From an uncultured cyanobacterium (GTDB lineage Bacteria; Cyanobacteriota; Cyanobacteriia; Cyanobacteriales; CAWUOF01), in NCBI GenBank assembly GCA_963744145.1, contig CAVUSO010000001.1:1806831-1870830 (forward strand): a DNA stretch of 64,000 bases, in the 5' to 3' direction. The position numbers were made by a program, and so were the translations under genes. A model generated the notes under the pieces. The model was given only the letters and a program-made list of their open reading frames with translations, was not told where the DNA came from and ran no database searches. Positions 28,101 through 48,163 of the stretch are shown in pieces (the first letter of the stretch is position 1; each line of letters starts with the position of its first letter).

Positions 28101-28157
28101 CCGTTCAGCTTCCCGATATGCTTCATCCCGTGCCATCGTCAACCTCTGCTTGCTCAC
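25125..28157 (-). CDS. ROCO-family protein: about 15 leucine-rich repeats + Roc (Ras-of-complex GTPase) + COR domain
   Basis: 23-aa LRR units NNQLTEVPAALAALTQLQSLSLD repeated. Roc P-loop LILVGEGEVGKSCLLGAL, DFGGQ switch II, followed by a COR-like region. Confidence 0.85.
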   Translation of the reverse strand: MSKQRLTMARDEAYREAERRIEAALENGATELDLSDMGLTEVPEAIGQLTNLQKLNLGGKFWKDSKNQLTKVPEVIFSLTQLQWLDLDNNQLTEVPAALAALTQLQSLSLNNNQLTEVPAALAALTQLQSLSLDNNQLTEVPEVIFSLTQLQSLSLNKNQLTEVPAALAALTQLQSLSLDNNQLTEVPEVIFSLTQLRALYLDNNQLTEVPAALAALTQLRALYLDKNQLTKVPEVIFSLTQLQLLSLNKNQLTEVPAALAALTQLQWLDLSKNQLTEVPAALAALTQLQWLDLSKNQLTEVPAALAALTQLQWLDLSKNQLTEVPAALAALTQLRALDLSKNQLTEVPAALAALTQLQWLDLSNNQLTEVPAALAALTQLQRLYLSNNQLTEVPHSLIKLIKLTELKLDKNPLNPDFAAANEQGIEAVMQYLRAKAEGEVTLNEAKLILVGEGEVGKSCLLGALRGDQWIDGRPTTHGIEIKPVIVKTPDCNTEITLNGWDFGGQRVYRPTHQLFFSAPAVYLVVWKPREGPQQGFVKEWITLIKHREPDAKILVVATHGGPGQRQPDIDRQELFDLFGRETIIDFFHIDSKPHLENQSCSGIAELKETIAKIAITLPGVGRTVPQKWQQIQKLLEQSNKTHLPYKDVIAICEEQGLKGFAAELFVRVSHTLGYLIHYHYDPILQDIVILKPDWLAKAISFVLDDKTTREQNGLVNFDHLSNLWSYPPFANEKGYPKELHPVFLRLMERFDLSYKVVFDPNEPSNTSLIAQLVPDQRPELFPDWGELPAPGDRQQVQICRIVDDRGQFANAEGLFYQLIVRLHKYSLGREKYQDSIHWQRGLMLDNDYNGRALLEYIGTDIKITVRAAYPERFLSYLTEEVKWLIEHFWEGLRCNVMVSCVEPCGRKAPGQGLFEVEKLIESKKKNRHDYPCPITGCDEWQDIDKMLSNASTSKPLSPDINAEKVRNIVDEIKTTLSKESSAILSQIDAHYEGVIQTFIDEAKDWTKII
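26940..27965. repeat. Near-perfect tandem 69-bp repeats (about 15 units) encoding the LRR solenoid of the ROCO protein
   Basis: Direct reading: ggcacttccgtcaattggtt(a/t)ttg(g/t)(a/c)gaggt(c/a)aagcc(a/t)ttgcaactgtgtgag(a/g)gctgcgagcgccgct reiterated. The long + strand ORFs here are shadow frames. Confidence 0.9.
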
Positions 28158-28487
28158 TCAATCCTCTACAAACTCAGTTATACTTTAATTTTGGCAAAAA
28201 ATTATAACCACAAATAGGATAATATTGATAAATATTCTCAAAAGATGGTGGTGCAGAAATTTCTACTTTAGTAGAATTATTAGATACAAGCTTGTTTTCC
28301 GATCGCGATCGCACCTCCCCCCTGAAACCTTAACATGATCTAATCAAATAGACGCAAAAATACTAATATATGAATTGTTAAATGCGCTGGTTTTTAGAAG
28401 AGCGATCGCACCTAAAAATTTAGACAAGCGATCGCACCTAAAAATTTAGACAAGCGATCGCCAACAATCTAGTTCTGATCTATGAAA

Positions 28488-29351
28488 TTAGGCATCTGCA
28501 TCAGGATCAATCCCCATTGCCCGTAGGCGTTCTGCAAGTCTTGCTGCTTTAATTTCAGCTTGTTCTGCCCGTTGATCCGCCTGGATAGCCCGTTGATCCG
28601 CTTGGATGGCCCGTTGATCCGCTTGGATGGCTCGCTGACGTTCCTGTTCAGCTTGCAGTTTTTCTAGCTCGGCTTTTTCATTGCCAATCAGTAATAGATT
28701 ACCTTCATGATCCCACCATCGCAACCAGATTTGCGTTTGGTTTTGATAAGTTCCTTGCCATAGCCCTAGTTCTACTCCTAATGGCTCAATCAAATAATGG
28801 TTACGTTCATTCGGCTCTAATTTTCGATAGGAAAAATCTACTAAGTGATACACTTCTAACTTGGCAGTTTTGATTTCATAGATGCCATAATAGGGAATCC
28901 GAATGATTTGTTCATACACCCAAAATTTCCCTGGTTTAATTTTCTTACCGTCGGGAGAAATGGCAAGTGGAGTTCGATCTCGTTCTTCTTCACCATTACC
29001 ACTAGCAAACTCTAAGGCAATCAATGGGGCTCTTAATTCCCGCCAAAACACATAGGAACGGCGGATCTCTCCATCAAGATTAGGTGGGACATTTGGCACA
29101 TAGAACCAATCGGGAGCTTCAGCACCTTTTTCGGGAGGATCAGTTTCCAGCCAGTAGATGCCACTATCTTGTCCAATACAATAATATCCATCTGGATGCA
29201 ATTGTTGTAAAATTTGCCCAATCGAGTCCGTCAGGATCAGACTCTGGGGATGTTCCTGAAAATTTTTCACAAATGTACCGTCTTCGTCTGGCAGTTGGGT
29301 ATGATCTGGGAAGGAGGAATGGCGATTTACTTGGGTTAATGTTTCTGTCAT
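28488..29351 (-). CDS. Uma2-family (DUF820) putative endonuclease with C-terminal coiled coil and AIQADQR x3 repeat; copy 1
   Basis: Uma2 signature blocks APDWFYVPNVPP..., PLIALEFASGNGEEERD..., GKFWVYEQIIRIPYYGIYEI... (PD-(D/E)xK-like), C-terminal ...LRAMGIDPD. Confidence 0.7.
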   Translation of the reverse strand: MTETLTQVNRHSSFPDHTQLPDEDGTFVKNFQEHPQSLILTDSIGQILQQLHPDGYYCIGQDSGIYWLETDPPEKGAEAPDWFYVPNVPPNLDGEIRRSYVFWRELRAPLIALEFASGNGEEERDRTPLAISPDGKKIKPGKFWVYEQIIRIPYYGIYEIKTAKLEVYHLVDFSYRKLEPNERNHYLIEPLGVELGLWQGTYQNQTQIWLRWWDHEGNLLLIGNEKAELEKLQAEQERQRAIQADQRAIQADQRAIQADQRAEQAEIKAARLAERLRAMGIDPDADA

Positions 29352-29510
29352 AATTTTAATCTTATTGCCGCTGATGTTAACTATAGCTTGAATAAATTAT
29401 GAACGATAGTGGTGCAGAAATTTCTAGTTTGGTGGAGTGATTAGATTCATGCTGGTTTTTGGATTGCGATCGCGCCTATTATTAAAATACTAATCTGATC
29501 TAATCAATTC

Positions 29511-29855
29511 ATGGAAGCGAGACCGAGAGAAATTCAAAACTACCTAACGACAGAGGGAAAAAGTCCTTATGAAGAATGGGTCGAATCATTTCGCGATCGC
29601 CAAACTAGATCTCAAATCGATAAGAGACTTAAACGAGTTAAATTAGGTAATCTAGGAGATTATCGATCTGTTGGAAAAGGAGTTTTTGAGCTTAGAATAG
29701 ATCAATGTCCGGGCAATCAGATTTATTTTGGTCAAATTGGATTAACCATAGTGCTGCTACTCTGTGGTGGAGATAAAAGCACCCAAGAACAGGATATTGG
29801 TAAAGCTAAGGAATATTGGAGAGATTATGAAAGACGTAAAAATACCAACCCATAG
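29511..29855 (+). CDS. Addiction-module killer protein (RelE/ParE superfamily, TIGR02683-like toxin); copy 1, intact
   Basis: KRVKLGNLGDYRSVGKGVFELRIDQCPGNQIYF...CGGDKSTQEQDIGKAKEYW matches the conserved block of the killer-protein family. Confidence 0.7.
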   Translation: MEARPREIQNYLTTEGKSPYEEWVESFRDRQTRSQIDKRLKRVKLGNLGDYRSVGKGVFELRIDQCPGNQIYFGQIGLTIVLLLCGGDKSTQEQDIGKAKEYWRDYERRKNTNP

Positions 29856-30150
29856 AAGTTACGACGAATATTTTATTTCTGCTCTGAAAAACTCCGATCG
29901 AGCGGCTGGGTATATCGAAGCTATTTTGGAACCAGAAGAACCTGATTCTGAACTATTGCGATCGGGAATCAAAGATGTAATCGAAGCTCGCGAACAGATG
30001 AATAGTCTCTCGGATGAAGCCAAACAGAAATGGGAGAAATTTGACCAAATGTTATCCAAAGATGGTGGTGCAGAAATTTATAGTCTGGTAGAATTATTAG
30101 ATGCTCTTGGGTTTCGGATCGCGATCGCTCCCAAGGAAACAAATCTGTAA
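29827..30150 (+). CDS. Addiction-module antidote protein (TIGR02684-like, DNA-binding); copy 1; start MKDVKIPTH overlaps the toxin stop
   Basis: Overlapping gene pair with the upstream toxin. Conserved C-terminus SDEAKQKWEKFDQMLSKDGGAEIYSLVELLDALGFRIAIA shared with copy 2. Confidence 0.65.
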   Translation: MKDVKIPTHRSYDEYFISALKNSDRAAGYIEAILEPEEPDSELLRSGIKDVIEAREQMNSLSDEAKQKWEKFDQMLSKDGGAEIYSLVELLDALGFRIAIAPKETNL

Positions 30151-30354
30151 TTGACAGCCTGTAAATTAAGCTGAATCAGCATCACATCAACATTTCTCTC
30201 AATCTACTTTGCGATGATTAACTATGATGCTGCTGCTTGAATTTAAGTCTCATTTTCTAATAATTCTGATAGTTGTTTGTAATTAACTTGAAGCCGAACT
30301 ACCTGAACATTTTTCCATTGTGTTTCGTCACGGATTGGAAGTTGAATTTGGAAT

Positions 30355-30789
30355 TCATAAAACCCTGATTCTAAACTTGTGAAAACTTGCAGCATTAGGT
30401 CGTTTCTCATATTGTAAAAGTAAATTGGCAAATTTTGTAGCCCACCAACCATTTTCTGCTTGAATAACAAATCCAGCAGCCGTTTGAGCTATTTCTAGAT
30501 TTACCATACTAAGCGCCCAGAGGTAAACAGCCAAAGCAGTATCCCAAGGATTCTCATATTCTAAATTAATTTCATTGCGTGAAAGATCAACAGCTCTTTT
30601 AAAAACCAACCAGATATTTTCAGGAGAGTCTTGAAGTTGCTTGACCAATTCTTTTGTCACCAATTCTTTCGATGCAGCACCCAAGAAGACTTTAAAACTG
30701 CTAGCAATATTCAACATAGCAGCAAATTCATGGCTTTCTACTTGAATCATAAGTTTTTTTAACACTAGCTTGTCCTCCTGTCTGTCCAA
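30355..30789 (-). CDS. Hypothetical protein (144 aa, TTG start) between the two Uma2-TA modules
   Basis: ORF only. Confidence 0.3.
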   Translation of the reverse strand: MDRQEDKLVLKKLMIQVESHEFAAMLNIASSFKVFLGAASKELVTKELVKQLQDSPENIWLVFKRAVDLSRNEINLEYENPWDTALAVYLWALSMVNLEIAQTAAGFVIQAENGWWATKFANLLLQYEKRPNAASFHKFRIRVL

Positions 30790-31006
30790 AATTCTCTGAT
30801 TGTTCCATAAGGTTCTGGGACTTCATCAATTAAGTGAATGTACTCACCATCAGCTCCCCATTGACTGATCACAGTAATCTCAAAAGATGCTTTTCTGATA
30901 TCTGGTTCCTTTTTGACTACTACAGCAACATGAGAATACTCGTCACCGATCGCTCCTAAAAATACTTAGATGAGTGTGCGCCAAGCATCTAGTCCAATAT
31001 GTAAAA

Positions 31007-31849
31007 TTAGTCATCCGTATCAGGGTCAATCCCCATTGCCCGTAGACGTTCTGCAAGTCTTGCTGCTTTAATTTCAGCTTGTTCTGCCCGTTGATCCGAT
31101 TGGATTGCCCGTTGATCCGCCTGGATGGCTCGCTGACGTTCCTGTTCAGCTTGCAGTTTTTCTAGCTCGGCTTTTTCATTGCCAATCAGTAATAGATTAC
31201 CTTCATCATCCCACCATCGTAACCAGATTTGCGTTTGGTTTTGATAAGTCCCTTGCCATAGCCCTAGTTCTACTCCTAAGGGCTCAATCAAATAATGGTT
31301 ACGTTCATTCGGCTCTAGTTTTTGATAGGAAAAATCTACTAAGTGATACACTTCTAATTTGGCAGTTTTGATTTCATAGATGCCATAATAGGGAATCCGA
31401 ATAATTTGCTCATACACCCAAAATTTCCCTGGTTTGATCTTTTTACCGTCGGGAGAAATTGCCAGCGGAGTTCGATCTCGTTCTTCTTGACCATTACCAC
31501 TAGCAAACTCTAAGGCAATCAATGGGGCTCTTAATTCCCGCCAAAACACATAGGAACGGCGGATCTCTCCATCAAGATTAGGTGGGACATTTGGCACATA
31601 GAACCAATCGGGAGCTTCAGCACCTTTTTCGGGAGGATCAGTTTCCAGCCAGTAGATGCCACTATCTTGTCCAATACAATAATATCCATCTGGATGCAAT
31701 TGTTGTAAAATTTGCCCAATCGAGTCCGTCAGGATCAGACTCTGGGGATGTTCCTGAAAATTTTTCACAAATGTACCGTCTTCATCTGGCAGTTGGGTAT
31801 GATCTGGAAATGAGGAATGGCGATTTACTTGGGTTAATGTTTCTGTCAT
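31007..31849 (-). CDS. Uma2-family putative endonuclease, copy 2 (about 97% identical to copy 1; AIQ(A/S)DQR x2)
   Basis: Collinear with 28488..29351, differing by one heptad-repeat unit and a few substitutions. Confidence 0.7.
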   Translation of the reverse strand: MTETLTQVNRHSSFPDHTQLPDEDGTFVKNFQEHPQSLILTDSIGQILQQLHPDGYYCIGQDSGIYWLETDPPEKGAEAPDWFYVPNVPPNLDGEIRRSYVFWRELRAPLIALEFASGNGQEERDRTPLAISPDGKKIKPGKFWVYEQIIRIPYYGIYEIKTAKLEVYHLVDFSYQKLEPNERNHYLIEPLGVELGLWQGTYQNQTQIWLRWWDDEGNLLLIGNEKAELEKLQAEQERQRAIQADQRAIQSDQRAEQAEIKAARLAERLRAMGIDPDTDD

Positions 31850-31997
31850 AATTTTAATCTTATTGCCGCTGATGTTAACTATAGCTTGAATAAATTATGA
31901 ACGATAGTGGTGCAGAAACTTCTAGTTTGGTAGAATTATTAGATGCTCTTGGGTTTCCGATCGCGATCGCACCTACTAATGAAAAACCGATCTGATC

Positions 31998-32353
31998 TAA
32001 TCAAATCATGGAAGCACAACCGAGAGAAATTCAACGTTACCTAACCCGCGAAGGTAGAATTCCTTTTGCTGAATGGCTGTATTCTATTCGAGAATCTTAA
32101 AACTAGAGCTAAAATCGATCATAGAATTAAGCGAGTCAAATTAGGTAATCTGGGAGATTATCGATCTGTTGGAGAAGGAGTATTTGAACTGAAGATCAAT
32201 TATGGCCCCGGCTACAGAGTTGATTTTGGTCAAATCGGATTAACCATCATAATTCTTCTATGTGGTGGAGATAAAAGTACCCAAGAACAGGATATTTGTC
32301 AGGCTAAGGAATATTGGAGAGATTATGAAAACCGTGAAAATTCCGACCAGTGA
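31998..32353 (+). pseudogene. Addiction-module killer protein, copy 2, disrupted by a +1 frameshift near 32090-32100 (N-terminal MEAQPREIQRYLTREGRIPFAEWLYSIRES* then out-of-frame continuation ...KIDHRIKRVKLGNLGDYRSVGEGVFELKINYGPGYRVDF...)
   Basis: Aligned with copy 1: the N-terminal 33 codons are in frame 1 and the conserved remainder is in another frame. The downstream antidote is intact. Confidence 0.6.
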
Positions 32354-32642
32354 TAGTTGGCAAGAAGCATTAATTGAATCTTTAAAAAATCTTGAATATG
32401 CTGCCGCTTATCTAGAGACTGCACTAGAAGAAAAAGAATCCGAACCAGAATTCTTGCCAGCTATAATCAAAGATGTAATCGAAGCTCGCGAACAGATGAA
32501 TAGTCTCTCGGATGAAGCTAAACAGAAATGGGAGAAATTTGACCAAATGTTATCCAAAGATGGTGGTGCGGAAATTTATAGTCTGGTAGAATTATTAGAT
32601 GCTCTTGGGTTTCGGATCGCGATCGCATCTAAAAATACCTAG
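32325..32642 (+). CDS. Addiction-module antidote protein, copy 2 (start MKTVKIPTS)
   Basis: C-terminal half is identical in protein to copy 1 (SDEAKQKWEKFDQMLSKDGGAEIYSLVELLDALGFRIAIA). Confidence 0.65.
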   Translation: MKTVKIPTSDSWQEALIESLKNLEYAAAYLETALEEKESEPEFLPAIIKDVIEAREQMNSLSDEAKQKWEKFDQMLSKDGGAEIYSLVELLDALGFRIAIASKNT

Positions 32643-32751
32643 ATGAGTGTATGCTAAGAATGTGGGAATATGTGAAAGTAGTCATCCGCATCAGGGTCAA
32701 TGGCTATTACTCACAGATATTCTGATGTTTAGAGCAACTCAAGGTATAATC

Positions 32752-33804
32752 ATGGATTGGAAACCAGAAACCACTTTAATTTTTGCCGTAGGAATTTTGA
32801 CATGGGAAAACTCGGATGTTTGGCCATCTTTTCCCGAAGCAATTCCAGGACGTTTTGATCAAAAATTGGTTGATTTTTTTCGCGCTCAAGGAGTTCCTGA
32901 AGCGCAAATTGTTTATTTACAAGATGCCAAGGCGACTCTGGCAGAAATTCAATCAACTCTACCAGAATTTTTAGCTAATCATAGTGATGAAGATTACCTA
33001 CTAATTTTTTATTTTGCTGGTCATGGAGATTGGGATAAAGAAACAGGTGAACATTATTTTATAAATTACGATGCTGATGGCGATGATCGAGATAATTATT
33101 GGTCAGTCACTTCGATTTTTGGTGATATTGAAGATAATTTTAAAGGTTCTAAGGCTTTGTTATTAGCTGATTGTTGCTTTTCAGGTGGTTTAATTGATCA
33201 GGTAAAGGAAGGAGATGATTTAGAGATTTCCTATGCTTGTATCAGTTCAGCTTATACCCATAACTTTTCGACCGGGAATTGGACTTTTACAGAAGCTTTG
33301 TATCAAGGATTGCTGGGAGATCCTGTAGTTGATTTAGACGGCGATCGCGAGATAACTTTATATGATTTTGCTCGTTATGCAGAATTAGAAATGGCTTTCA
33401 TTGAATCTCAGAAATCGATGTTTGTGACTACTAAAGATTTTGATCCTCAGATGGTGTTAGCAATTGTATCTGATGATATTCCAGCGATCGAAGGAAAGCG
33501 GGTCGAAGTAGAATATGAGAATGAGTGGTACAAAGCTAAGACTTTAGAAAGAGAAGGAGATCAAGTTTTAATCAAATATGTTGAGGATGATGAGGAACCA
33601 GCATGGGTAACCAATGATCAGATTCGTCCCTATCAACCAGAGCTGTTTGCTATTGGAGAAAAAGTAGAAGTTGAATCAGAAGAAGAATGGTGTTCAGCAA
33701 CGGTTTTAAAAGCTTGGTATGGGTTGCATTTGATTAGTTATGACGATTATGATGAGTCCTATAATGAATGGGTAGGAAGCGATCGCATTCGTCCTCAACA
33801 GTAG
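32752..33804 (+). CDS. Orthocaspase (peptidase C14 caspase-like domain) with two C-terminal Tudor/Agenet-like domains
   Basis: Catalytic dyad context YLLIFYFAGHGDWD (His) and KALLLADCCFSGGLID (Cys). Two repeats GKRVEVEYENEWYKAKTL...VLIKYVEDDEEPAWVTNDQIRP and GEKVEVESEEEWCSATVL...HLISYDDYDESYNEWVGSDRIRP. Likely start MDWKPE at 32752; the track start 32647 lies in repeat-derived sequence. Confidence 0.65.
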   Translation: MDWKPETTLIFAVGILTWENSDVWPSFPEAIPGRFDQKLVDFFRAQGVPEAQIVYLQDAKATLAEIQSTLPEFLANHSDEDYLLIFYFAGHGDWDKETGEHYFINYDADGDDRDNYWSVTSIFGDIEDNFKGSKALLLADCCFSGGLIDQVKEGDDLEISYACISSAYTHNFSTGNWTFTEALYQGLLGDPVVDLDGDREITLYDFARYAELEMAFIESQKSMFVTTKDFDPQMVLAIVSDDIPAIEGKRVEVEYENEWYKAKTLEREGDQVLIKYVEDDEEPAWVTNDQIRPYQPELFAIGEKVEVESEEEWCSATVLKAWYGLHLISYDDYDESYNEWVGSDRIRPQQ

Positions 33805-34250: not shown

Positions 34251-37200
34251 ATGACTGTCTATGTTTATATCACCGAGCAATGTAAAAATGACGCTAGCAG
34301 ACATGGTGCCATCAATGATATTGAGAAATTCAAGGAAAAGCTAGAAAATGACCAAAGTGCTCGTCTGCTCACTCGTCTTGATTATCGATATCACAGAAGG
34401 GTCATGGGGACGAATAGTAGCGCAAGATTGGTGATTGAAGAATATCGTACTGATCACGACACCATCGTTTTGTGTTTTGTAGGATATCATATCCGGAGTA
34501 GCGCTGATTACAGTTTATTACTAAACAGTCCAAACACTTACTACGAACGATATGGGGTAACAGATGAAGAAATTGAAGCATTTCTCAAAGAGAAAACTAT
34601 AAATCCAATCAAGAAAAAGCCACAACTGACAGAATTTGAATCTGAGTATCTTCAGTCTGCAAGCGGATACGATTACACTAATGATGGTGCCTTTTTAGAA
34701 AGTTACGACTGGGTTGAGCGCATTTCTGAAGATTGGGCTAAAAGCTACTTAAATCGTTACCATGATCTGATTTTTAAGTTGACAGAGGAAGTTGAAAGTT
34801 GTATAAGTCATGTAGGGATAGACACGCTTTCCCATGATAAGAACCCAAATATAAAAATAATTTTCCGGAGTTTTCCTGAACATAGACGAATTTTCCTGAT
34901 CGCTCCTATTAATTGGCAGAAAGATAGCGATGAAAAAAATATCCGTGAGCAATACGCCGATTTATTAACAGCAAACTCACTCAAAATGGAAGACCTAATC
35001 CGCAACAGTCTTCGCGCATATCCAACAATTATTATCTATGATGAAGATATTTGGATGCGAGTAGAAAATACTACAGAAGCAAATCTAGCCCTGTCACCAG
35101 AAGAAGAATGTGTTCTTGGATCTGTAAAAAGTCGAGTTAGCAATGGGGCTAAGTATCCTCTATTTATTAATGGTCGTCCTGGGAGCGGAAAATCTACAAT
35201 TCTTCAGTATTTATTTGCAGAACAGCTAGCTAATTTTATTAAATTGCTTAATAATTCAAACATCAATAATCCTCCACTTTATCTTACTTATAGTACGCCC
35301 TTGTTAGAAGAAGCCCGCGAATTAGTCAAAAAAATTTTAACTTGTGGAATTCGCCATGTAGAGGATGAAAGTATACAAGCATTTGTCACAGATTATAACA
35401 AACTGCATTCATGTTTCCGTAATTTTCGTGAGTTTTTGCGCTCATTACTACCACTCGAAATTCGCGATCGCTTTGTCCAAGCTAATTATGTAGACTTTGC
35501 TCGTTTTCGCAAACTTTGGGAAGACAAGCGTGGTAAACATCCGCAGAAGGAAGTCCGCAGCATTGGGCCGGAACTAGGGTGGCACGCAGTGAGAACTTTC
35601 ATTAAAGGTATGCAATCGGAATCGGGAATTGTGGTAGACCCTGATTATTATCGAGATGAGCTAGCGCGAGACAGTAAATCCATTTCCGATCAGACTTTTG
35701 AAATCATTTACGAGCATATTTGGAAGAAGTGGTATGAGCCTCTTTGTAAGAATGAAAAGTATTGGGATGACCAAGACTTAGCACTTGAGGTTCTGATTAA
35801 TGTAGGGGAACAATTATCGGGTTATCCAGCGGTGTTTTGCGATGAGGCTCAAGATTTCACCACGATTGAGCTAGGACTGATTGAGCGGCTTTCAGTCTAC
35901 TCTGGGAAAGAAATACATAGCTTTTGGGTAAAGAATGTACCCTTTGCCTTTGCTGGTGATCCGTTTCAGACTCTGAATCCAACAGGGTTTAATTGGAGTG
36001 CCATGCAATCTAATTTTTATGACAATATTATTAAGCAGTTAGATCCTAGGGGCATAGCGAAGCTAGAGTTTAATTTTCAGGAGCTAGCATTTAACTATCG
36101 ATCGGCAGAACATATTGTCAAACTCGCTAATCTGATTCAATTACTACGTGCTGTCTTACTTCGGATTAAGGGAATTCGTCCTCAATATAGCTGGACTCGT
36201 AAAATTACCAACAGTCCTGTTTATTTTCGGTGGGATGATATTAACTGCCGCGCCAAACTCCGTGAACAAGATGAATTAGTTATGATTGTTCCTTGTCAGG
36301 AAAATGGTGAATTTGAATATGTAAAAGAAAATGAATTTCTGACATCGATCGCGATTAATCAGGCTGGAGAAATATCTAGAAACATTCTCAGTCCAGCCAG
36401 GGCTAAGGGCTTAGAGTATGATCGGGTTGTTCTCTATGGATTTGGTGATGAAGCAGGAAAGCGTTTTCCAGATTTACTAGCACAGATCAATGATCCTAGT
36501 AAAGATCCGCCGGATCTAGAACAAAGATTATCATGGGAGTATTTTCTCAATCAGTTTTATGTGGCGATTAGTCGTCCCCGTAAGCGATTATTTATAGTTG
36601 ATTCAGATGAATCATTGAAAAATTTCTGGTTGTTCACTGCTCCTCTAAAACAAAAAGTATTGCTCAGTCTCTATGATCTTTATCAACCTAATCATAATTG
36701 GAGTTTAGATGAACTGGGAGGTATGCTGGAAGGGGATAATTCAAGTTGGTTAGACGATCGAGACGATCCTTTAGAATTAGCTTCTCAATGGCGAGATCAG
36801 GGTCAGCTTCAGCGTGATCCTTATTTATTACGTCTGGCTAAAGATAACTTCTATCGGGCTGAGCGTTTTGAGGACGCAAGTTTGTGTGAAGCTAAACAAT
36901 ATGAATATGAAGGTGAGTTTAAAAAAGCTGCGGAACTATTTATTAATCTTGGTCAATCTGGTGAAGCTTGTCGTTGTTACTGGACAGATCGAGATGCTAA
37001 CTCGGTCGTTCGTTTGGTTGAAAAGTTTCCTAAGATTACAACTGATCTACGTTTTATTGCTGCGGGTTCTATTGTGAGAGAGCGCAATACAGTATTCCAG
37101 CTTAATCACGTACTGACAGCACTCGAACAAACCCCCCCATCATTGACAGAGCTACCGGAGGAAGTGGAGGGGTGGCGCTGGTTTTTTAGTTGTTTTGCAG

Positions 37201-38723
37201 ACAAGATCAGTGAAGAAATCTTAGCTTCTGACCGCGCAACAGCAGAATGGAAACCCTATATTGAACGTTTGATTCAAACTATTAAACGGTTTGAATTACC
37301 TCTGAGCGCTTATCCAGAAATTGCTAAACTCCTTTATTTGTCTGGAGATGCAAGAGTCGCGATCGATCACTGGAATCGGTACTGTCGGGATTATAAATCC
37401 GATCGACCGGGAGAAAAATGGCTCACTCAAGCCCGAGCAGAAACAGAAGCATATCCTACAAATATCCGTTTTTACCATGAACTGGGTGATTATCAAACGG
37501 TTATTAATCAATGGACATTAGCCGATCGCATCATCGATAGCGATACACCAGTAAGTTTGCTACTTGATAGCGCCGCTAGGTTGAATGATCTTACAGCACT
37601 GCGAGCTATATTACCAGCAACTGACGATCTTAACAAATTGAATCGGGCGCTTAGTCTGCTTAATGACAAGACTATTCTCTCTTTAGAGGGAGCATTATGC
37701 GTTGCAATTACCCACTCAATGGAATCTTATGGTGATGGGGAAAAAATTATCCAGTTTGTGGTCAACAAAACCACCTCAAACAAAGAGCTAGATGCGAGAA
37801 TTAAAAATGCAGGAATCGCATGGAAAGGTAAAGTGTTAATAGCTGCGGCAGTTCGAGCTATAGCCCGTTCAGAGCGATTATTCCAAGATCAGGTTAAAGC
37901 TCAAAAAATATCTGAATTTTTGAAGCAAGTTCTAATTTTAGAAAAAGATGCAAATCCCAATAAACAAAATCGAGTCAAGTCGGTTTTGGAATTAATAGAT
38001 ATTACCGAGGCTGGAGCAGCATTTGAAAGAGGATTTCGTCGGTTAAATTATGCACTGGATTTTTATGAACAATTCTTTGAAAATAGCTATCTTGCTTATC
38101 GTGTACTAAATCCTTCTCAGGAGCAAACTGAGTTTGCTAAACTACGATGGATTTTTTGCAAGCGTCGTTTAGCTGATATCACCAGGGATAATAAATATAG
38201 GACTGAGGCTGACAATCGGGGACGTGAGTGGAATATTTCAACTAATCAAAAACCTGATTCTCTAAACCTTCAGCCCATCAGTGAGCTAAAGCTTTCTATT
38301 CCTGGACTAGCTGCTCCATCATCCAGTCCTTCAGCTAGTGAAATAACCAAACAAAAACAACCATTACCAACCAAAATTAAACCATTAGATAAAAGTAAGA
38401 AAACGATTATATTCAAATTAGATAACCAGCAAATAAAAGTGGAAGCTTTTCCCCTGAAAAAGCGAATTATTTTGACTGATTATGAAACTCAAAACCAAGT
38501 AAAATGCGAGTTTCAAAATGTGACAAGTGAAGATATTGAGATTAAGGAGGAAGTCTCTGTCTCTGAACAGATCCGAATCTGGAATATTTCTGATTGGGGA
38601 CTTCGATGTGAAATGGAAGCTAAAGAAGATTTAGCGACAATCCGTTTTCGTCTTCCTCATGGAGTGGTAAAGGAATTTAGATTTATCGTGAATAAAAAAG
38701 TCGAAGATAAAGATCACCCCTAG
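34251..38723 (+). CDS. Giant (1490 aa) UvrD/Rep-like SF1 helicase fusion protein with an unknown ~280-aa N-terminal region and a ~650-aa C-terminal alpha-helical/TPR-like plus beta-rich extension
   Basis: Motif I FINGRPGSGKSTIL, II VFCDEAQDF, III FAGDPFQTLNP, IV FNYRSAEHIV, V ARAKGLEYDRVVLYGF, VI YVAISRPRKRLFIVD. Confidence 0.7.
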   Translation: MTVYVYITEQCKNDASRHGAINDIEKFKEKLENDQSARLLTRLDYRYHRRVMGTNSSARLVIEEYRTDHDTIVLCFVGYHIRSSADYSLLLNSPNTYYERYGVTDEEIEAFLKEKTINPIKKKPQLTEFESEYLQSASGYDYTNDGAFLESYDWVERISEDWAKSYLNRYHDLIFKLTEEVESCISHVGIDTLSHDKNPNIKIIFRSFPEHRRIFLIAPINWQKDSDEKNIREQYADLLTANSLKMEDLIRNSLRAYPTIIIYDEDIWMRVENTTEANLALSPEEECVLGSVKSRVSNGAKYPLFINGRPGSGKSTILQYLFAEQLANFIKLLNNSNINNPPLYLTYSTPLLEEARELVKKILTCGIRHVEDESIQAFVTDYNKLHSCFRNFREFLRSLLPLEIRDRFVQANYVDFARFRKLWEDKRGKHPQKEVRSIGPELGWHAVRTFIKGMQSESGIVVDPDYYRDELARDSKSISDQTFEIIYEHIWKKWYEPLCKNEKYWDDQDLALEVLINVGEQLSGYPAVFCDEAQDFTTIELGLIERLSVYSGKEIHSFWVKNVPFAFAGDPFQTLNPTGFNWSAMQSNFYDNIIKQLDPRGIAKLEFNFQELAFNYRSAEHIVKLANLIQLLRAVLLRIKGIRPQYSWTRKITNSPVYFRWDDINCRAKLREQDELVMIVPCQENGEFEYVKENEFLTSIAINQAGEISRNILSPARAKGLEYDRVVLYGFGDEAGKRFPDLLAQINDPSKDPPDLEQRLSWEYFLNQFYVAISRPRKRLFIVDSDESLKNFWLFTAPLKQKVLLSLYDLYQPNHNWSLDELGGMLEGDNSSWLDDRDDPLELASQWRDQGQLQRDPYLLRLAKDNFYRAERFEDASLCEAKQYEYEGEFKKAAELFINLGQSGEACRCYWTDRDANSVVRLVEKFPKITTDLRFIAAGSIVRERNTVFQLNHVLTALEQTPPSLTELPEEVEGWRWFFSCFADKISEEILASDRATAEWKPYIERLIQTIKRFELPLSAYPEIAKLLYLSGDARVAIDHWNRYCRDYKSDRPGEKWLTQARAETEAYPTNIRFYHELGDYQTVINQWTLADRIIDSDTPVSLLLDSAARLNDLTALRAILPATDDLNKLNRALSLLNDKTILSLEGALCVAITHSMESYGDGEKIIQFVVNKTTSNKELDARIKNAGIAWKGKVLIAAAVRAIARSERLFQDQVKAQKISEFLKQVLILEKDANPNKQNRVKSVLELIDITEAGAAFERGFRRLNYALDFYEQFFENSYLAYRVLNPSQEQTEFAKLRWIFCKRRLADITRDNKYRTEADNRGREWNISTNQKPDSLNLQPISELKLSIPGLAAPSSSPSASEITKQKQPLPTKIKPLDKSKKTIIFKLDNQQIKVEAFPLKKRIILTDYETQNQVKCEFQNVTSEDIEIKEEVSVSEQIRIWNISDWGLRCEMEAKEDLATIRFRLPHGVVKEFRFIVNKKVEDKDHP

Positions 38724-39065: not shown

Positions 39066-42000
39066 TCAAAATAAAAGTTGACTTTCTTGGGAGCGAGAGG
39101 GCAATGACCAGCTCTTGACTTTACCCAAGGTGACCGGCATCGGCAGGGCCACATCAATAGTAAAGCGGAAGACCTTACGCCCCCGACGACTATTATCTGG
39201 GTCGTAAAACTCGAGTTTGATATCCCAACAGTCACTGTTGATGCGACAGAAGGGGCTTTTTTCAACTTGAATGGTGTCAAGTTGACGACCCTCGGCGATC
39301 GCTAGAGCAAAGGTTAAAGCCGCTTGGAAGATATTGGTAGCAGCGAAATTAAGAGCGCGATCGCGGGAAGTCTGCCCTACATTGCGTAAATCATTGTAGA
39401 CTCGGTTAAGGAAGATGATCAGAGCTTGTCGAACCAAGGGTTCTTGGGCTGCATCCACTCGATTGGAAATGGCTGTCATTGCCGCGTTTACCAGAGTATT
39501 TACTTTCCATCCATACATTCCCCGCACATCATGGACTTTCACCACAGGCAAAACCTGACCTGAGAAGAGTTCCACCGTGCGGTTGGTGCGTCGGGCTGGT
39601 ATGCTAATTCGCTCTACAAATTCATCACTGGTTTCTGGTTCGAGTTGCCCCACCAACATCAGCAAAAACATCTCGTAGATATCTGATGAAAACGCTCCTG
39701 TTGGTTCAAGGGCATAAATAGTATCGCCATCAAGGCTCAAAGTCCAGATGAGGGAACGGCTCTCATCTGGGTGGCGATCGAGATGCTCGACCATCTGACG
39801 GACATCGTAGGGGTCAGGCGGAACCATTATCCCGTTAACTTCAGTCGGAGCCATCATTTGCTTGAAGGTATCGCAGCGGGCTTCATCTCCAAAGTCGTAG
39901 TTAATAGTCCCTAAAACGTAAACGTTGCCAGAGAAAGCCGTGCTAGCTTCGATCGTGCCTAGCTCTGCGGTAGTCTCAGCTACTGTAAGGGATATTTCAG
40001 TTGGTGTGGCAGATGCGGTGAGTGGCATGGCTAAACTGGTGGTTATAGCAGTGCTGATCCTTGTCTGGGCAGCAATAGCGCTAGGAACAGCATATCCACC
40101 ACGCTCTGTACGGGTGACTTGGTCACCTGCAAAGGAAATGGTGACAGATGGTTGCCCAAACAGCACCTTCATCGTGCCCGGTATATTGACAAAACCGCGC
40201 ATACAGCGTTCGGATTCTTCTACAATCTTTGGATCGCAAGGAATCGCAGTATTGAGCAATGCCGTTCGGATCGCTTCAGCATCGACGGGTTTACCCTCTT
40301 GTAGCTGCAAACTCATCATTAGTGCAGAGATTCCGGTCACGATCGGAGCAGCTCCACTGGTGCCCGTTCTGAGCCTCGGTTTCTCAGTTGCTAATTGTGC
40401 GCCCCAAATGTCGTCACCAGGAGCCATAATCCCTTCTTCAGTATAATTGCCTCCCCAATTATTGTAGTGGGCTGGTGGGTTGCCTAGATCCATTGCTCCT
40501 ACAGGAAGAGTTCCTGGCAATACACCAGGTAAACACCAGTATTCACCCAAACCGTTACCCGCAGGCCCGACAATCAAAATATTGTTATCTAGGCACTTCT
40601 GTACAGCTTGGGTAAACAACTCTTCTCCTTGACAAGTTTGGGTGGGGCGACATATTCCACAATGAATGATATTTGCCCCCAAATCCAGGGCCAGTTCAAA
40701 AGCACGGGCTAGATTAAGGGGAGAGGCAAGTTCCTCCGCCATCTCTATGCTGTCAAGTGGTAGATTAATTAGGCGACAGTTAGGAGCAATACCAGCAGCA
40801 GGGGTATTTTCTTGACCCACAATGATACTGGTGACATGGCAAGTATGGTCATCAATTTTAAGACGTGCGATCAGAGGTTCCGGAAAACTAGCCCTGAGTT
40901 CTGCTTCTTTCTCCTGCTTGGTGCGATCGCTGTCTTCAATAGCTCGGAAGGTGGCGTACTGTTCTGAAGAAATTGGCCCTGGAGTCTCGTGCCAGTAAGG
41001 AAAGACTTTAGAAATTGCAGCTCCCTGGAAACAGGACAACGAGTGGTCGGGGTTGCCTTCGAGAACCACAATAGTGATGCGAGGGTCGCCGAGAGTTTGG
41101 TTGCGGAGTTCAGCCAGTCCCGGGATGCGATCGTCAAGGTCGTGGGGATGAAGTGCCATAGAAACATCTTGTGCTGTCGCCTCAACTGTGCTCGTTGAAA
41201 CGGTTGCAGATGAACTCAAGGATGCGAGCAAATCTGACTCTTCGTCAACCGAAACACCAGTCTGCGTTGCTTCAGTTATTAGTTGTGCTGATGTAGAAAC
41301 ATCTACAGATCCAGCCCCATTCACCACAACCTCCGTGGTATAGTCATTCTCCTCAAGTTCGTAGGATGCCACTTCACTAGCCGAAACTTCTACTGACCTA
41401 AGCTTGTTCCAGCCAGCTACTGTAGCTGAACTCGCATCACTTGTACCCACAGCATGGTTTGGTAACGACCCCAACATGAACTCACCCACAGCCGACTCTT
41501 TCACATAATCCAGACCTGCTAATTGCCCAAAACCGTCGCTATCTCCACCTCCCAACGCGCAGGGAGCAAGACCCATATTAGTAGACACTAAATAGAGATT
41601 TTGCTGTAGCACTCCAACATCTTTCAACACCAACGAATAGGCTACAGAGCGATACTTGCGGAACAGCCTGCCAAACCTTGCCGTAATCACAAGAAGAACT
41701 TGTGGTTGGGGTTTGTAATAAATATAAGGTTCTAGAGCAAGGACATCCTGGGATGCAGCAATCTGCTCCAATTGATGATTTATTGGATCGTAGTGATACA
41801 ATCCTGTGTCTAGTCCTTGACAAAGTCGCACCACTGGATAAATTTCTAGCTCATACATTGCTCCGCTACCAGGATAAGGCCGACTACCTAGCTCACCATA
41901 GTCAATATCCGCGTCAAAGCCGAGTATTTTCCGCCAATTTTCACCAAGCCACTCCTCCTCTCGAAGAATATTTTTGACACGGGCAGTGCGATAAAGAAGT

Positions 42001-42932
42001 TCACCGAGTTGTTCTATCGTGATAGGATGTGCATCGTCGTGTTCTCGAATCGATTTCCGTCTCTCAATCACTTCTGTGAGTGTAGCATCGTTACATTGCA
42101 ATGCCTCCAAGTTTGGACGCGGTAGAGACACAACTTTGTCGCTCATGGGTGGCTTTACCACCGGAAAATCAGACCACTGTTCGATGTTGATATCTCCTAC
42201 TGGATAGTCATGGCGGCCTAATCTGCTCCGGCTGTGGAACAACAGGTTGTGAAAGTCCCAAAGTTGGAGCGAGGGGGTTTCAGGGTCAGCCGTCAGAAAT
42301 CCTGATGCCCACAGCAATTTGAGAAACTGATAGGCTGTTTCTGGACCTAGGTAGGGTGGTGGTGTCAGTGTGCCCAGAGATTGGGGTTGGGCAAGTTGAG
42401 CCAGAATAGCACTTGCCCGCCAGTCGAGAAGTTTAACCCGAAACTTTGAGAGGGGGGACTCCAGCACCATGGTGCCGTCGTGGGGATGCTGATAGGCAAA
42501 GCGGGAGAGGGTGATATTTGTTTGTGTCCAGTAGGGTTCGGTCAGATTTAGCTCGGCAGATTCCACCATCGGGATCGCTAGTGCTAGGGGCAACACAGCA
42601 TAACTCAACCAACCCCGCTGATCCAATTGTTGTAGCATTAGGGCGAACTGTTCCCCTGCTATCCGACCATCAAGTTCGACTAACCCTTGCACAAGTGATT
42701 CATTGGTAGAGTTGCCTACCTTGAGAAGATCAAGAGCCATACTGATTCCAGGTGTTGTTGCTAGGGTGAGCAAATCATTGGGATTGGATTCTGCTGATGA
42801 ACGTAGAATATAGTGGTCTTCGGTACTTGTCACTTGGACAAAAGGATTGAGGAAAATATTGAAGGGATGGTTGCTCATAGCAAATGATAATGGGAAACAA
42901 TGATTAGGCAAGTGAGTCAATGGCAATAGCAA
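39066..42932 (-). CDS. patG: PatG-like cyanobactin maturation protein: N-terminal SagB-type FMN dehydrogenase (azoline oxidase), subtilisin-like (S8) protease/macrocyclase domain, and the PatA/G C-terminal DUF
   Basis: SRPYPGSGAMYELEIYPVV (SagB/nitroreductase motif). S8 blocks ITIVVLEGNPD, ILIVGPAGNG, GTSGAAPIVTGISALM. C-terminal ~230 aa is about 60% identical to the C-terminus of the PatA-like protein (…LNFAATNIFQAALTF…EKSPFCRINSDCWDIKLEFYDPDN…). Confidence 0.8.
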   Translation of the reverse strand: MLLPLTHLPNHCFPLSFAMSNHPFNIFLNPFVQVTSTEDHYILRSSAESNPNDLLTLATTPGISMALDLLKVGNSTNESLVQGLVELDGRIAGEQFALMLQQLDQRGWLSYAVLPLALAIPMVESAELNLTEPYWTQTNITLSRFAYQHPHDGTMVLESPLSKFRVKLLDWRASAILAQLAQPQSLGTLTPPPYLGPETAYQFLKLLWASGFLTADPETPSLQLWDFHNLLFHSRSRLGRHDYPVGDINIEQWSDFPVVKPPMSDKVVSLPRPNLEALQCNDATLTEVIERRKSIREHDDAHPITIEQLGELLYRTARVKNILREEEWLGENWRKILGFDADIDYGELGSRPYPGSGAMYELEIYPVVRLCQGLDTGLYHYDPINHQLEQIAASQDVLALEPYIYYKPQPQVLLVITARFGRLFRKYRSVAYSLVLKDVGVLQQNLYLVSTNMGLAPCALGGGDSDGFGQLAGLDYVKESAVGEFMLGSLPNHAVGTSDASSATVAGWNKLRSVEVSASEVASYELEENDYTTEVVVNGAGSVDVSTSAQLITEATQTGVSVDEESDLLASLSSSATVSTSTVEATAQDVSMALHPHDLDDRIPGLAELRNQTLGDPRITIVVLEGNPDHSLSCFQGAAISKVFPYWHETPGPISSEQYATFRAIEDSDRTKQEKEAELRASFPEPLIARLKIDDHTCHVTSIIVGQENTPAAGIAPNCRLINLPLDSIEMAEELASPLNLARAFELALDLGANIIHCGICRPTQTCQGEELFTQAVQKCLDNNILIVGPAGNGLGEYWCLPGVLPGTLPVGAMDLGNPPAHYNNWGGNYTEEGIMAPGDDIWGAQLATEKPRLRTGTSGAAPIVTGISALMMSLQLQEGKPVDAEAIRTALLNTAIPCDPKIVEESERCMRGFVNIPGTMKVLFGQPSVTISFAGDQVTRTERGGYAVPSAIAAQTRISTAITTSLAMPLTASATPTEISLTVAETTAELGTIEASTAFSGNVYVLGTINYDFGDEARCDTFKQMMAPTEVNGIMVPPDPYDVRQMVEHLDRHPDESRSLIWTLSLDGDTIYALEPTGAFSSDIYEMFLLMLVGQLEPETSDEFVERISIPARRTNRTVELFSGQVLPVVKVHDVRGMYGWKVNTLVNAAMTAISNRVDAAQEPLVRQALIIFLNRVYNDLRNVGQTSRDRALNFAATNIFQAALTFALAIAEGRQLDTIQVEKSPFCRINSDCWDIKLEFYDPDNSRRGRKVFRFTIDVALPMPVTLGKVKSWSLPSRSQESQLLF

Positions 42933-43439
42933 GTGGTGAAATCATCAGTAAGGGATAGAAATTAAATAACTAGCTTGCTTGTAGTAACACATCAGAGCGA
43001 AGACAGCGCTTACTACGAACCAAACCGTCAAGTTATTTATTTTTCATTCCTAATGGCATCTTATATGTTGTTAAAAATTCGATCCCGTATAACTTTAAAA
43101 GGTTAGGTTTTTTTGGACGGTTCAACAATTGTTTTATCCGCTAACTATAACAAAAGATTTATTATGTTCGATCGCCCTCAACATCGCAATTAGGCTCAAT
43201 CCCACACAAACCTTCTATTCCAAGAACAGCTTCTTCAAATAAAGGAATCGGAAAACTAGGTTCTACATCAAAAGCATCTCGGTGAGCCCGCATAAACCGA
43301 AGACGGTGTTCTCGTAGATAATTATGTAAAAATCCAGAATTTATCGTCATAATCGTATTTCCTCATCCAACACTTTTTAAGTTATCTGCTGCAAATTATA
43401 TGCACCCATTCAGAATAGGTTTTGAGTTTGGATGCACTT

Positions 43440-45233
43440 TCATTTTATCTTGTTCACAAAATTATTTATTTCGTAGTACATTTTTACTCTCTGAATTGAA
43501 TCAATATAAAACTCAGATTCAGGAATACCTAAATACAGCCTCTTAAAGACTCGATTCCGGTAATAAGCATGGACTTTATTCACCATCTCATTGCCCAAAT
43601 ATTCAACAGCACTATTGGGAGATTTGAAATTAGTGAAATAAAGGACATCACTATCGTTCTCATTGCTAATACCGATTTGAACAACTCTACTCTCATAGAA
43701 AAGAGGAAGTGCTCTAGCAGGTAATCTCGAAGTTAAATATGCTTGTACATCCAGGCGATCGAGATCGGCAGGATAAAAAGTAGGATAGACTTCTACCGCC
43801 GCTTTATTGTTAAAGAAAAAGTCAAACCCTACTAATAAAGTCCCATTGATAATTAATTTCTCCCAGTCTCGCTTTTCTCCGCAAAGTGCGATGGCAATTG
43901 CTATCTTTTCTGGATAATCCCTGATGCTAAGAAATAACTTTATTCGTGAACGTTTTAGTTCTGGACGAACATCGACACCGACAGACACCATATCTACTTT
44001 ATGAGGGTCTATACCTGTAGCTAAAAACTGCTGAAGTAAACTGCGATCAAGCTGAATTTCTGGACTTCCTTCTATCAAACGAGAGAAAGAGAGGAAATCT
44101 TCAATATCAAGCAATTTCACTACTGGATCGGGAACACCAACTTCAGAGAGATAAGTAAAACGAGCTGGATAAAAACAATCTTTTTCAATATTGCAGCAAC
44201 AGGCAATACAACCTCCTTGATCTTTTCTCTGCTTACCGATAAATTCTGCAAATAAATTTAATGGATAAGAATTTTCAATATTAAAAACTTGTTTGTGTTC
44301 TTCAAAATAACGCAAATTTTCTTCATGGCGATTCAATCCGAAACTGGACTTCACACCAGAAAAATGCTTTTGGGGTTCAACTTTTATTCTGGCAGGTTTG
44401 ACCGCTTTAATATCAGCAAAAAATAAGGGTAAATTGGGGTGAAGGAAATTTGCAGAAGCTAGACGTAGAGCTAGTGATGGCATCTTAACTGTTTGGTTTT
44501 CATCATATTCAATAGATTGGAAACCAGCCTCATGAACAAGCTCAACTAAGTTCTTAAGAGGAATAACATGGCTGTTTTGGAGTTCTTGCTGGTTGATTTC
44601 ATCCATTGCTTTTTGCTCTAGTGGAGAAAGGGGTGGCTCTTTAACAAAGAGACCCGTAATATATAGAGTTCCCCCCGGATTTAGCACGCGTCTGGCTTCA
44701 GCAAGGACTTGGGATACCCGATTAGAATACTTGATGCTGTCGTTGAAAAACACTACATCAAATACTTCATTGGGAAAAGGTGGGAAATGAAAATCACCTA
44801 CTTGGACCCGCACCCGATCAACCAAGTTAGCTTGGGCAATCCGAATTTGGGCTTCTGCCGCTTCCACCTCAGAAATTGTTAGACCCTCAATCCGGGTTCC
44901 TGGAAACAACTGAGCAATATGAATCGCCGGAATTCCTGCTCCACAACCAGCATCAAATATATAGTTTCCGGGCTTTATCCCCATGCGATCTGCTAGACTA
45001 AGGTTGTGTGATCTAGCTACTGCATCAGGAACCATCCGACTAAAGTTGATGGAGTGCTTATTATAAAAAGTGCGAACTTCTTCGACTTCGGGCGTAGGGT
45101 TAGGTTGAATAGGAGCACTTGGACTGATGTAGTTATTTTGCATGATGTTCGATAGGGATAACTGGCGGAAAGAAAAGTCTGGATGACTTGATGGTGAGCT
45201 TAAGTGCATCTTCAACAGTAAAGACAAGACCAA
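43440..45233 (-). CDS. Class I SAM-dependent methyltransferase fused to a C-terminal domain occupying the PatF (cyanobactin prenyltransferase family) position; putative bifunctional MT-PT
   Basis: MTase motif I IFDAGCGAGIPAIHIA, post-I acidic residue, motif II/III region. ~350-aa C-terminal domain of PatF-like size immediately downstream of the precursor gene. The PT call is positional/inferential. Confidence 0.5.
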   Translation of the reverse strand: MVLSLLLKMHLSSPSSHPDFSFRQLSLSNIMQNNYISPSAPIQPNPTPEVEEVRTFYNKHSINFSRMVPDAVARSHNLSLADRMGIKPGNYIFDAGCGAGIPAIHIAQLFPGTRIEGLTISEVEAAEAQIRIAQANLVDRVRVQVGDFHFPPFPNEVFDVVFFNDSIKYSNRVSQVLAEARRVLNPGGTLYITGLFVKEPPLSPLEQKAMDEINQQELQNSHVIPLKNLVELVHEAGFQSIEYDENQTVKMPSLALRLASANFLHPNLPLFFADIKAVKPARIKVEPQKHFSGVKSSFGLNRHEENLRYFEEHKQVFNIENSYPLNLFAEFIGKQRKDQGGCIACCCNIEKDCFYPARFTYLSEVGVPDPVVKLLDIEDFLSFSRLIEGSPEIQLDRSLLQQFLATGIDPHKVDMVSVGVDVRPELKRSRIKLFLSIRDYPEKIAIAIALCGEKRDWEKLIINGTLLVGFDFFFNNKAAVEVYPTFYPADLDRLDVQAYLTSRLPARALPLFYESRVVQIGISNENDSDVLYFTNFKSPNSAVEYLGNEMVNKVHAYYRNRVFKRLYLGIPESEFYIDSIQRVKMYYEINNFVNKIK

Positions 45234-45403
45234 AGAAGGAACATAGGACTTTAAAAAAGTTTTTTATCTAAGCCTCCTTGGCCTTGTCTGTAGTCTCAAG
45301 CCTATCAACGTTTAATCCCGATATTTAGGGCAGTAAACTGCAATTTTACCGGATTTGGAAGGCTTAAGATGCAATTTGCTGGCCATTCGCAAATTGGAAG
45401 AAT

Positions 45404-45646: not shown

Positions 45647-45780
45647 GGAACTAATCCTTATTTTGTTGCTTGGTTTGTTGACCCGTTTAGGTGGGTTAAT
45701 CCTCTCCTTCATTGAGAAGAAGGCTGATGAAGCAACATCTGGCACGTAGAGAAGCCCGTTGCCTGCAAACTTTAAAAGAC

Positions 45781-48129: not shown

Positions 48130-48163
48130 TGATTAAGTGGACAAAAACCAAACATCCCATTAA

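Follow-up and report, generated by a model that had tools for sequence, protein, structure and literature searches.

Two precedents are found in the literature in which a domain of the RelE fold lies N-terminal to a superfamily 1 (SF1) helicase, namely ArmD (bioRxiv 10.1101/2025.09.15.676423) and CnuH (PMC11090510). ArmD consists of a RelE-like domain and a GajB-like helicase and is essential for the defence conferred by ARMADA type II, a system for which all four arm genes are needed for phage defence in Escherichia coli (bioRxiv 10.1101/2025.09.15.676423); the mechanism of ARMADA II is direct and non-abortive. CnuH is the helicase of type II/III-A CoCoNuT and a predicted defence protein, the 'RNase toxin-like' (RTL) domain of which was recognised by structure and not by sequence (PMC11090510). 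Here we describe a gene from a 64,000-nt stretch of DNA of an uncultured cyanobacterium (contig CAVUSO010000001.1, positions 1,806,831 to 1,870,830; this whole stretch is called the window), which codes for a 1490-aa protein of related design. Its five parts, a RelE fold, an alpha/beta domain, a motor of the SF1A type, a TPR-like solenoid and a beta domain, are kept in this order across a family for which no description was found in the literature and libraries searched.

The gene and the parts of its product are located in the window as follows:

34251..38723, + strand: complete open reading frame (ORF) with ATG start, 1490 aa (stop codon included), uninterrupted
34251..34610, + strand, residues 1-120: RelE/ParE-fold domain, from an AlphaFold2 (AF2) model and fold search
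34683..35075, + strand, residues ~145-275: second alpha/beta domain of unassigned fold, from structure prediction
35082..36650, + strand, residues 278-800: divergent SF1A (UvrD-like) ATPase/helicase core, from motifs, Pfam and profile alignment
residues 277-285: Q-like motif ANLALSPEE, near-invariant in the family
35172-35198, residues 308-316: Walker A motif GRPGSGKST
35841-35858, residues 531-536: Walker B motif DEAQDF
residues 567-574: motif III FAGDPFQT
residues 615-618: motif IV NYRS
residues 716-724: motif V ARAKGLEYD
residues 770-784: motif VI YVAISRPRKRLFIVD
36768..38231, + strand, residues ~840-1327: all-helical TPR-like solenoid of ~30 helices, from structure prediction
38304..38393, + strand, residues 1352-1381: low-complexity Pro/Ser/Lys-rich linker, predicted to be disordered (pLDDT <50)
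38400..38687, + strand, residues 1384-1479: C-terminal all-beta domain with 10 strands, fold unassigned (AF2 pLDDT ~80-90)

The translation agrees with that quoted in a preliminary description of this DNA, and an identical protein (P0001) was found in the protein search. Intergenic regions of 446 bp upstream and 342 bp downstream surround the gene; the upstream one holds no credible ORF, and the downstream one separates the gene from a convergent PatG-like gene. Promoter and terminator scans around the gene gave nothing better than shuffled controls, and Rfam has no match within or near it. The gene has a GC content of 0.393 and the window a mean of 0.414, so that the AT-rich context which had been noted earlier is marginal.

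All SF1A motifs (Q, I, II, III, IV, V and VI) are present in canonical order, and nearly all motif residues are invariant when 64 full-length homologues are aligned. Seven motifs had been claimed at the outset and only six strings listed; these six are all present and nearly invariant, and the Q-like motif is there as well. UvrD_C is the sole Pfam model to score above threshold (31.1 bits, cutoff 25.6), with the UvrD-helicase N-terminal domain remaining below it (12.8 bits versus 23), and the core is therefore, as judged by its sequence, a very divergent SF1A member. NCBIfam has no match for the protein. When the PDB sequences were searched by phmmer with the single sequence, and also with the helicase core and the family profile, no UvrD, PcrA, Rep, GajB or other helicase was retrieved.

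ArmD resembles the window protein in its general layout. In both proteins, an N-terminal RelE-like domain is followed by a spacer of ~150 aa and a UvrD-family SF1A helicase, the Walker A lysine being K266 in ArmD and K314 in the window protein. We found ArmD (WP_000218177.1; ECs_5264; translated length 704 aa) in the leuX-linked element SpLE6 of E. coli O157:H7 Sakai, where the order is Zorya II, Druantia III, armA-C and then ArmD. The helicase cores can be aligned (family residues 299-785 with ArmD residues 251-694, hhalign probability 91.6%, E 8e-7). However, there is no detectable sequence similarity between the N-terminal modules (hhalign of the family module against ArmD 1-260, E 0.14 over 10 columns), and ArmD is without a TPR/beta tail, which adds ~690 aa to the window protein. 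The relationship to GajB also differs, with a PADLOC match at 2.4e-36 for ArmD as opposed to 1.2e-7 over partial stretches only. ArmD always follows armA (BrxHII-like), armB (PglX-like) and armC (YprA-like) in strict order and never stands alone, whereas in the window the gene lies between a caspase-Agenet and a PatG-like gene. We clustered all ORFs lying up to 6 kb from the gene at 72 non-redundant homologous loci, and armABC-type genes do not recur among them. Orthology to ArmD was thus considered and rejected: only the helicase core aligns, armABC genes are missing and the tail of ~690 aa is extra. The window protein realises an ArmD-like design, having arisen independently or diverged very long ago.

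As a side observation, the Zorya II-Druantia III-ARMADA II island of Sakai (NC_002695.2, 5357499-5391646; SpLE6) is annotated in RefSeq under generic names, ArmD (ECs_5264) being called 'DNA helicase', ArmC 'RNA helicase' and ArmB 'hypothetical protein'. It is covered by our loci L086 and L087.

CnuH shares with the window protein a domain of the RelE/colicin-D fold directly N-terminal to an SF1 helicase (eLife 2024, PMC11090510). By its description, CnuH belongs to McrBC-type CoCoNuT operons and carries an SmpB-like OB domain (PMC11090510), whereas the window protein has a UvrD-like motor with a TPR and beta tail, and McrB/McrC-type genes do not occur nearby in the window. Cami1, a CARF-RelE ancillary effector of type III CRISPR systems (PDB 8PHB/8PHJ), senses by a CARF domain that binds cyclic oligoadenylate and not by an ATPase/TPR unit; unlike the window protein it is small (~380 aa) and CRISPR-linked. 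With GajB and with UvrD, Rep and PcrA the window protein has in common the SF1A motif set, the UvrD_C match and partial matches to GajB profiles, but it differs by its large N- and C-terminal additions. It has no full-length GajB match, and GajA is absent from the window.

There is also a parallel to the Avs/STAND receptors of anti-phage defence, in which an N-terminal effector, a central P-loop NTPase and a faster-evolving C-terminal repeat solenoid are combined. The NTPase of the window protein, however, is an SF1 helicase with motifs III-VI and not a STAND ATPase. The P-loop matches to STAND models are sub-threshold (nSTAND3 13.7 bits versus 27.2, NACHT 13.2 versus 26.7), and thus the parallel is one of analogy and not of homology. 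Given ArmD, CnuH and Cami1, the concept behind the protein is not categorically new; the family is distinct in its architecture.

RelE cleaves mRNA in the ribosomal A site by means of a constellation of basic and tyrosine residues, and the catalytic-type residues of E. coli RelE are K52/K54, R61, R81 and Y87. In the AF2 model of residues 1-295 of the window protein (mean pLDDT 86), two domains are seen, which are connected by a floppy linker of low confidence at residues 133-142. Residues 1 to ~95 form a RelE-like core of the order beta-alpha-alpha-beta-beta-beta, to which extra helices are added, and Foldseek places RelE, HigB, YafQ, YoeB and Cami1 above ParE among its fold matches. The toxin-like fold that had been suspected for the first ~110 aa is borne out by these models. 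The RelE fold becomes visible only via the AF2 models: searches of the PDB sequences with the family profile and with the N-module profile found no toxin, and a Pfam scan of 26 N-modules at E<=10 gave noise only.

The E. coli RelE sequence used for reference was checked against PDB 4V7K. In profile and MAFFT alignments, which are weak (hhalign E 0.11), RelE residue R61 corresponds to R59 of the window protein, Y87 to Y87, K54 to residue 50 and K80/R81 to residue 82. R59 is conserved in all 64 homologues, Y87 in 62, K49 in 61, and a basic residue is found in 63 of them both at position 50 (K/R) and at position 82 (R/K). Such a pattern of basic and tyrosine residues is to be expected of a functional RelE-type active site. 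Because the alignments are weak and ParE-type toxins share the fold, catalytic competence is something that we infer from this pattern.

The second alpha/beta domain has E150, W154, R255, Y257 and W268 as invariant residues; a sequence signal that would mark it as a duplicate of the RelE-like domain is absent (hhalign E 0.29). Beyond the helicase core, the TPR-like solenoid evolves faster than any other part of the family, with a conservation below that of the core, and the linker which follows it is the lowest-conserved block (0.19). The residues conserved in the C-terminal beta domain include W1449. A C-terminal solenoid followed by a beta-rich domain had already been suspected from the sequence, and both parts are predicted by the models. 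While conservation is lowest in the C-terminal half, this half is recognisably homologous even in the most distant members, the beta domain included (hhalign probability >99%), and therefore it is the whole five-part architecture which defines the family.

Searching 5.8 billion proteins gave 417 matches. The best 120 of these are nearly all full-length (~1350-1690 aa), have 30-61% sequence identity and are unnamed or called 'hypothetical', with UniRef and NCBI labels such as 'DNA 3'-5' helicase II' or 'UvrD-helicase domain-containing' on some homologues. The exhaustive search with a hidden Markov model of the N-terminal 295 residues (the N-module) gave 807 clusters at 50% identity, 636 of them at E<=1e-10. 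All of the best 150 of the 807 clusters have the same architecture or are fragments thereof, and the N-module is therefore essentially private to the family. More than 600 sequence clusters keep the five-part layout. In a comparison limited to catalogues up to 2023, no defence model of PADLOC-DB v2.0.0 covers the window protein over its full length, and there are only partial matches to the helicase cores of GajB (at best E 1.2e-7) and RTasHel.

At least 285 loci or species representatives, corresponding to roughly 0.15% of species, carry a family member according to a species scan that was pattern-seeded and used one genome per species, so that its counts are a lower bound. Hosts belong to the Cyanobacteria and to the Alpha-, Gamma- and Deltaproteobacteria, and further to the Chloroflexota, Planctomycetota, Verrucomicrobiota, Bacteroidota, Acidobacteriota, Gemmatimonadota, Firmicutes and Nitrospirota, with one bacterium from the candidate phyla radiation (CPR). 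Sequence identity of the window protein is 58% with its Thiocapsa marina homologue and reaches 61% with metagenomic homologues, compared to 44-47% for Aerosakkonema and Planktothrix and about 30% for other cyanobacterial genomes. As the Thiocapsa protein is closer than those from other cyanobacteria, the identity pattern provides direct sequence evidence that the family has spread by horizontal transfer between phyla. Full-length members were found neither in the plasmids of PLSDB nor in the phages of INPHARED, and a single member occurs among 2.9 million IMG/VR contigs.

No neighbour is conserved across the 72 loci; the largest cluster of neighbouring proteins, found at 11 of them, is made up of promiscuous signalling proteins. 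The picture was the same when the 120 flanking proteins closest to the genes were pooled: a given Pfam family occurred in at most 3 of them, and a given PADLOC family in at most 2. Likewise, no recurrent small ORF upstream of the gene was found when the homologous loci were searched for an antitoxin, and the ParD-like gene located upstream of the Planktothrix copy is confined to that locus, as determined by tblastn with the ParD-like protein. With neither a recurrent neighbour nor a recurrent small upstream ORF, and with the ParD-like gene restricted to a single locus, the helicase gene is a stand-alone unit without antitoxin. The following surroundings were annotated:

L025:155-17343, alphaproteobacterial metagenome-assembled genome: co-directional Dam-like methyltransferase, HerA, NurA, UvrD, PD-(D/E)XK, family member, type III Mod and Res
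L028:143-13445, Anaerolineales metagenome-assembled genome: near-identical co-directional array to that of L025, ending at type III Mod
L029: family member directly after HmaB-HmaC
L092, the closest relative (61% identical): member after genes for type III Res, an OLD-TOPRIM ATPase and SbcCD-like proteins, with the OLD-TOPRIM ATPase at a distance of ~5 kb and not adjacent
L094: MazE/PIN and YoeB/Phd pairs on either side of the member
L002: HindIII restriction-modification pair 4 kb upstream of the member
L001, the Planktothrix copy: ParD-like gene upstream
L003, L004 and L093: housekeeping or transposase surroundings

The gaps around the family member in L025 and L028 are only 18-27 bp. That a near-identical array is shared by these two loci suggests that the whole island was transferred as a unit.

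We tentatively read the gene as an autonomous conflict system made of a single polypeptide, in which a RelE effector, an SF1A motor and a TPR/beta sensor are combined, and which is most likely directed against phages. The RelE-type residues are conserved and the motor motifs invariant, and the tail evolves faster and yet is homologous throughout. There is neither a partner nor an antitoxin, and the distribution is rare and patchy, with transfer between lineages. Frequent neighbours are restriction-modification, HerA/NurA, Hma, OLD-family and toxin-antitoxin genes. The N-module is exclusive to this architecture, and ArmD and CnuH provide precedents. In such a system the N-terminal RelE-type domain would be the effector, the central SF1A ATPase the motor and the C-terminal TPR-plus-beta region a sensor or scaffold. 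The RelE domain would be kept inactive in cis in the resting state. An invader might be perceived either through a protein, which would be seen by the fast-evolving TPR/beta module, or through a nucleic-acid structure, which would be seen by the helicase. Recognition of this cue, coupled to the binding or hydrolysis of ATP, would release the RelE domain, which would then cut ribosome-bound mRNA and thereby shut down translation.

A number of points weigh against the gene being an autonomous conflict system. Both autoinhibition and trigger are purely what we infer, and the N-terminal model has a pTM of 0.51. The correspondence to RelE residues depends on alignments of low significance (hhalign E 0.11) and on fold matches, and the gyrase-poisoning relatives of the ParE type have the same fold. 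ARMADA II, the system to which the closest analogue belongs, works non-abortively, so that a fusion of RelE and helicase does not have to imply that translation is shut down or infection aborted. An association with defence islands is seen in about 8 of 11 annotated contexts, a figure without statistical control. The survey of homologues proposed in the preliminary description gave a mixed picture: several members reside in defence or toxin-antitoxin islands, but several loci are flanked by housekeeping genes, and roughly one in three of the contexts looked at is of an ordinary housekeeping kind. A defence function of the family is thus plausible though unproven. The proposal of a new helicase-based defence protein holds in part: it is plausible, the family is unnamed and no PADLOC v2 model covers the protein, but the kind is not wholly new, since fusions of RelE with SF1 helicases have precedents in ArmD and CnuH.

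A more specific version of this idea, for which we see somewhat less chance, is that of an Avs-like, pattern-recognising immune receptor built on a helicase chassis in place of a STAND NTPase. A RelE-family toxin without antitoxin would be gated in cis by the ATP-driven SF1 helicase and the fast-evolving TPR/beta sensor, and one polypeptide would both sense the invader and shut down translation by ribosome-dependent mRNA cleavage.

Among the alternatives, the one that survives best, although we consider it unlikely, is an accessory module which acts in trans with nearby DNA-targeting systems in the manner of ArmD. The helicase would then work on invading DNA, and the RelE fold would have a regulatory or backup role. 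This is consistent with ArmD being essential and yet only one of the four components of ARMADA II, with its non-abortive mechanism, with the member of L025 and L028 being wedged co-directionally between UvrD plus PD-(D/E)XK and type III Mod/Res at gaps of 18-27 bp, and with the position directly after HmaB-HmaC in L029. On the other hand, no partner recurs in the 72 loci, where even the largest neighbour cluster (11 loci) represents promiscuous signalling domains, and many members, including the copy in the window, have no adjacent defence genes that could be obligate partners.

Still less probable is that the RelE-fold domain is inert, or is a ParE-like adaptor for the binding of ribosomes, RNA or gyrase, attached to a helicase that remodels nucleic acids, so that the output would not be mRNA cleavage. 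The positions aligned with R61, Y87, K54 and K80/R81 of RelE are under strong purifying selection, and the ribosome-dependent mRNases RelE, HigB, YafQ and YoeB, together with Cami1, rank above ParE in the Foldseek search.

We give little credence to a fused selfish module, an addiction or stress device like a toxin-antitoxin pair with the remaining polypeptide as antitoxin in cis, which would persist by stabilising its island and not by sensing phages. The toxin fold without a separate antitoxin would fit, as would L094, where toxin-antitoxin modules lie on either side of the family member, and L001 with its ParD-like gene upstream, but this gene occurs at one locus only. Moreover, the conserved ATPase, TPR and beta domains take up ~1350 aa, far more than neutralisation needs, and the intact motor motifs favour a role in signal transduction. 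We find it just as improbable that the protein is a housekeeping factor of sporadic lineages, e.g. a helicase for ribosome-associated RNA quality control or accessory DNA repair, as the helicase labels in UniRef and NCBI and the loci among housekeeping genes might suggest: database names are automatic and reflect the UvrD_C match alone, and the homologues are rare (~0.15% of species representatives), scattered over many phyla without conserved synteny and clearly transferred between them, in line with the initial view that this is no housekeeping orthologue.

If the gene does represent an autonomous conflict system, RelE, a classic type II toxin, could be controlled without an antitoxin by a fused ATPase motor and repeat sensor. 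The emerging class of immune proteins with a RelE fold and an SF1 helicase, represented by ArmD and CnuH, would gain a third and autonomous member. It would also offer a clean system for the question of how a helicase/TPR signal is turned into ribosome-targeted RNase activity, and for the role of the RelE domain in ArmD. The family is tractable, since it requires one gene only and has clear sites for point mutants (R59, Y87 and K314), and it spans many phyla including filamentous cyanobacteria, in which few defence systems have been tested.

The remaining annotated features of the window are:

9141-9481, + strand: tRNA-Leu(UAA) gene with a group I intron in the anticodon loop, with exons GGGGGCGTGGCGGAATGGTAGACGCTACGGACTTAA ... 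GGTTCAAGTCCCTCTGCCCC that can be made out by eye
14320-16509, - strand: Ser/Thr kinase-WD40 protein
16682-24187, - strand: two PAS/GAF histidine kinases
25125-28157, - strand: LRR-Roc-COR (ROCO) GTPase
28241-28316, 29402-29482, 30058-30138, 31900-31980 and 32556-32636, + strand: five copies of a ~76-81-nt repeat
28488-29351 and 31007-31849, both - strand: Uma2-family nuclease genes, upstream of the helicase gene
32647-33804, + strand: caspase (Peptidase_C14) with two C-terminal Agenet/Tudor-like domains, directly upstream of the helicase gene
39066-51249, - strand: cyanobactin-type cluster for a ribosomally synthesised and post-translationally modified peptide (RiPP), GC content 0.47-0.51 and thus above its surroundings

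The fusion of a caspase with Agenet domains is an unusual combination in bacteria. Its association with the helicase gene is kept in no homologous locus, and none of the other associations within the window (Uma2 pair, LRR-Roc-COR gene, cyanobactin cluster) recurs elsewhere. The adjacency to caspase and Uma2 genes that had been pointed out before is therefore real in the window but is conserved at no other locus. The stated convergence with the cyanobactin cluster is accounted for by the PatG-like gene downstream.

The two Uma2 genes are part of a tandem duplication of a block of ~2.5 kb (28400-32650), each copy consisting of a Uma2 gene and two small ORFs on the + strand, and the identity of the copies varies along the block, from 97% down to 75%. 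The ~76-81-nt repeat, AAAGATGGTGGTGCAGAAATTTnTAGT...GGATCGCGATCGC, ends in the HIP1-like palindrome GCGATCGC. It is located at the boundaries of the Uma2 blocks and at the ends of the small ORFs, and within the window it is confined to a stretch of 4.4 kb, with 0 copies expected by chance.

The RiPP cluster codes for a PatG-like protein (ThcOx oxidase, subtilase and PatG_C), a methyltransferase-DUF5838 protein, a PatA-like subtilase, a PatD-like YcaO cyclodehydratase with a winged helix-turn-helix (wHTH) domain and a 199-aa ORF without Pfam match. On the far side of the Uma2 blocks, the - strand genes between 14320 and 28157 form a run of large eukaryote-like signalling proteins. ARAGORN reports no tRNA in the window and thus missed tRNA-Leu(UAA), presumably because of the intron, which is recognised by Rfam (RF00028, 9165-9406, 85.5 bits, E 2e-20). 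An intron-split tRNA-Leu(UAA) is the classic cyanobacterial arrangement.

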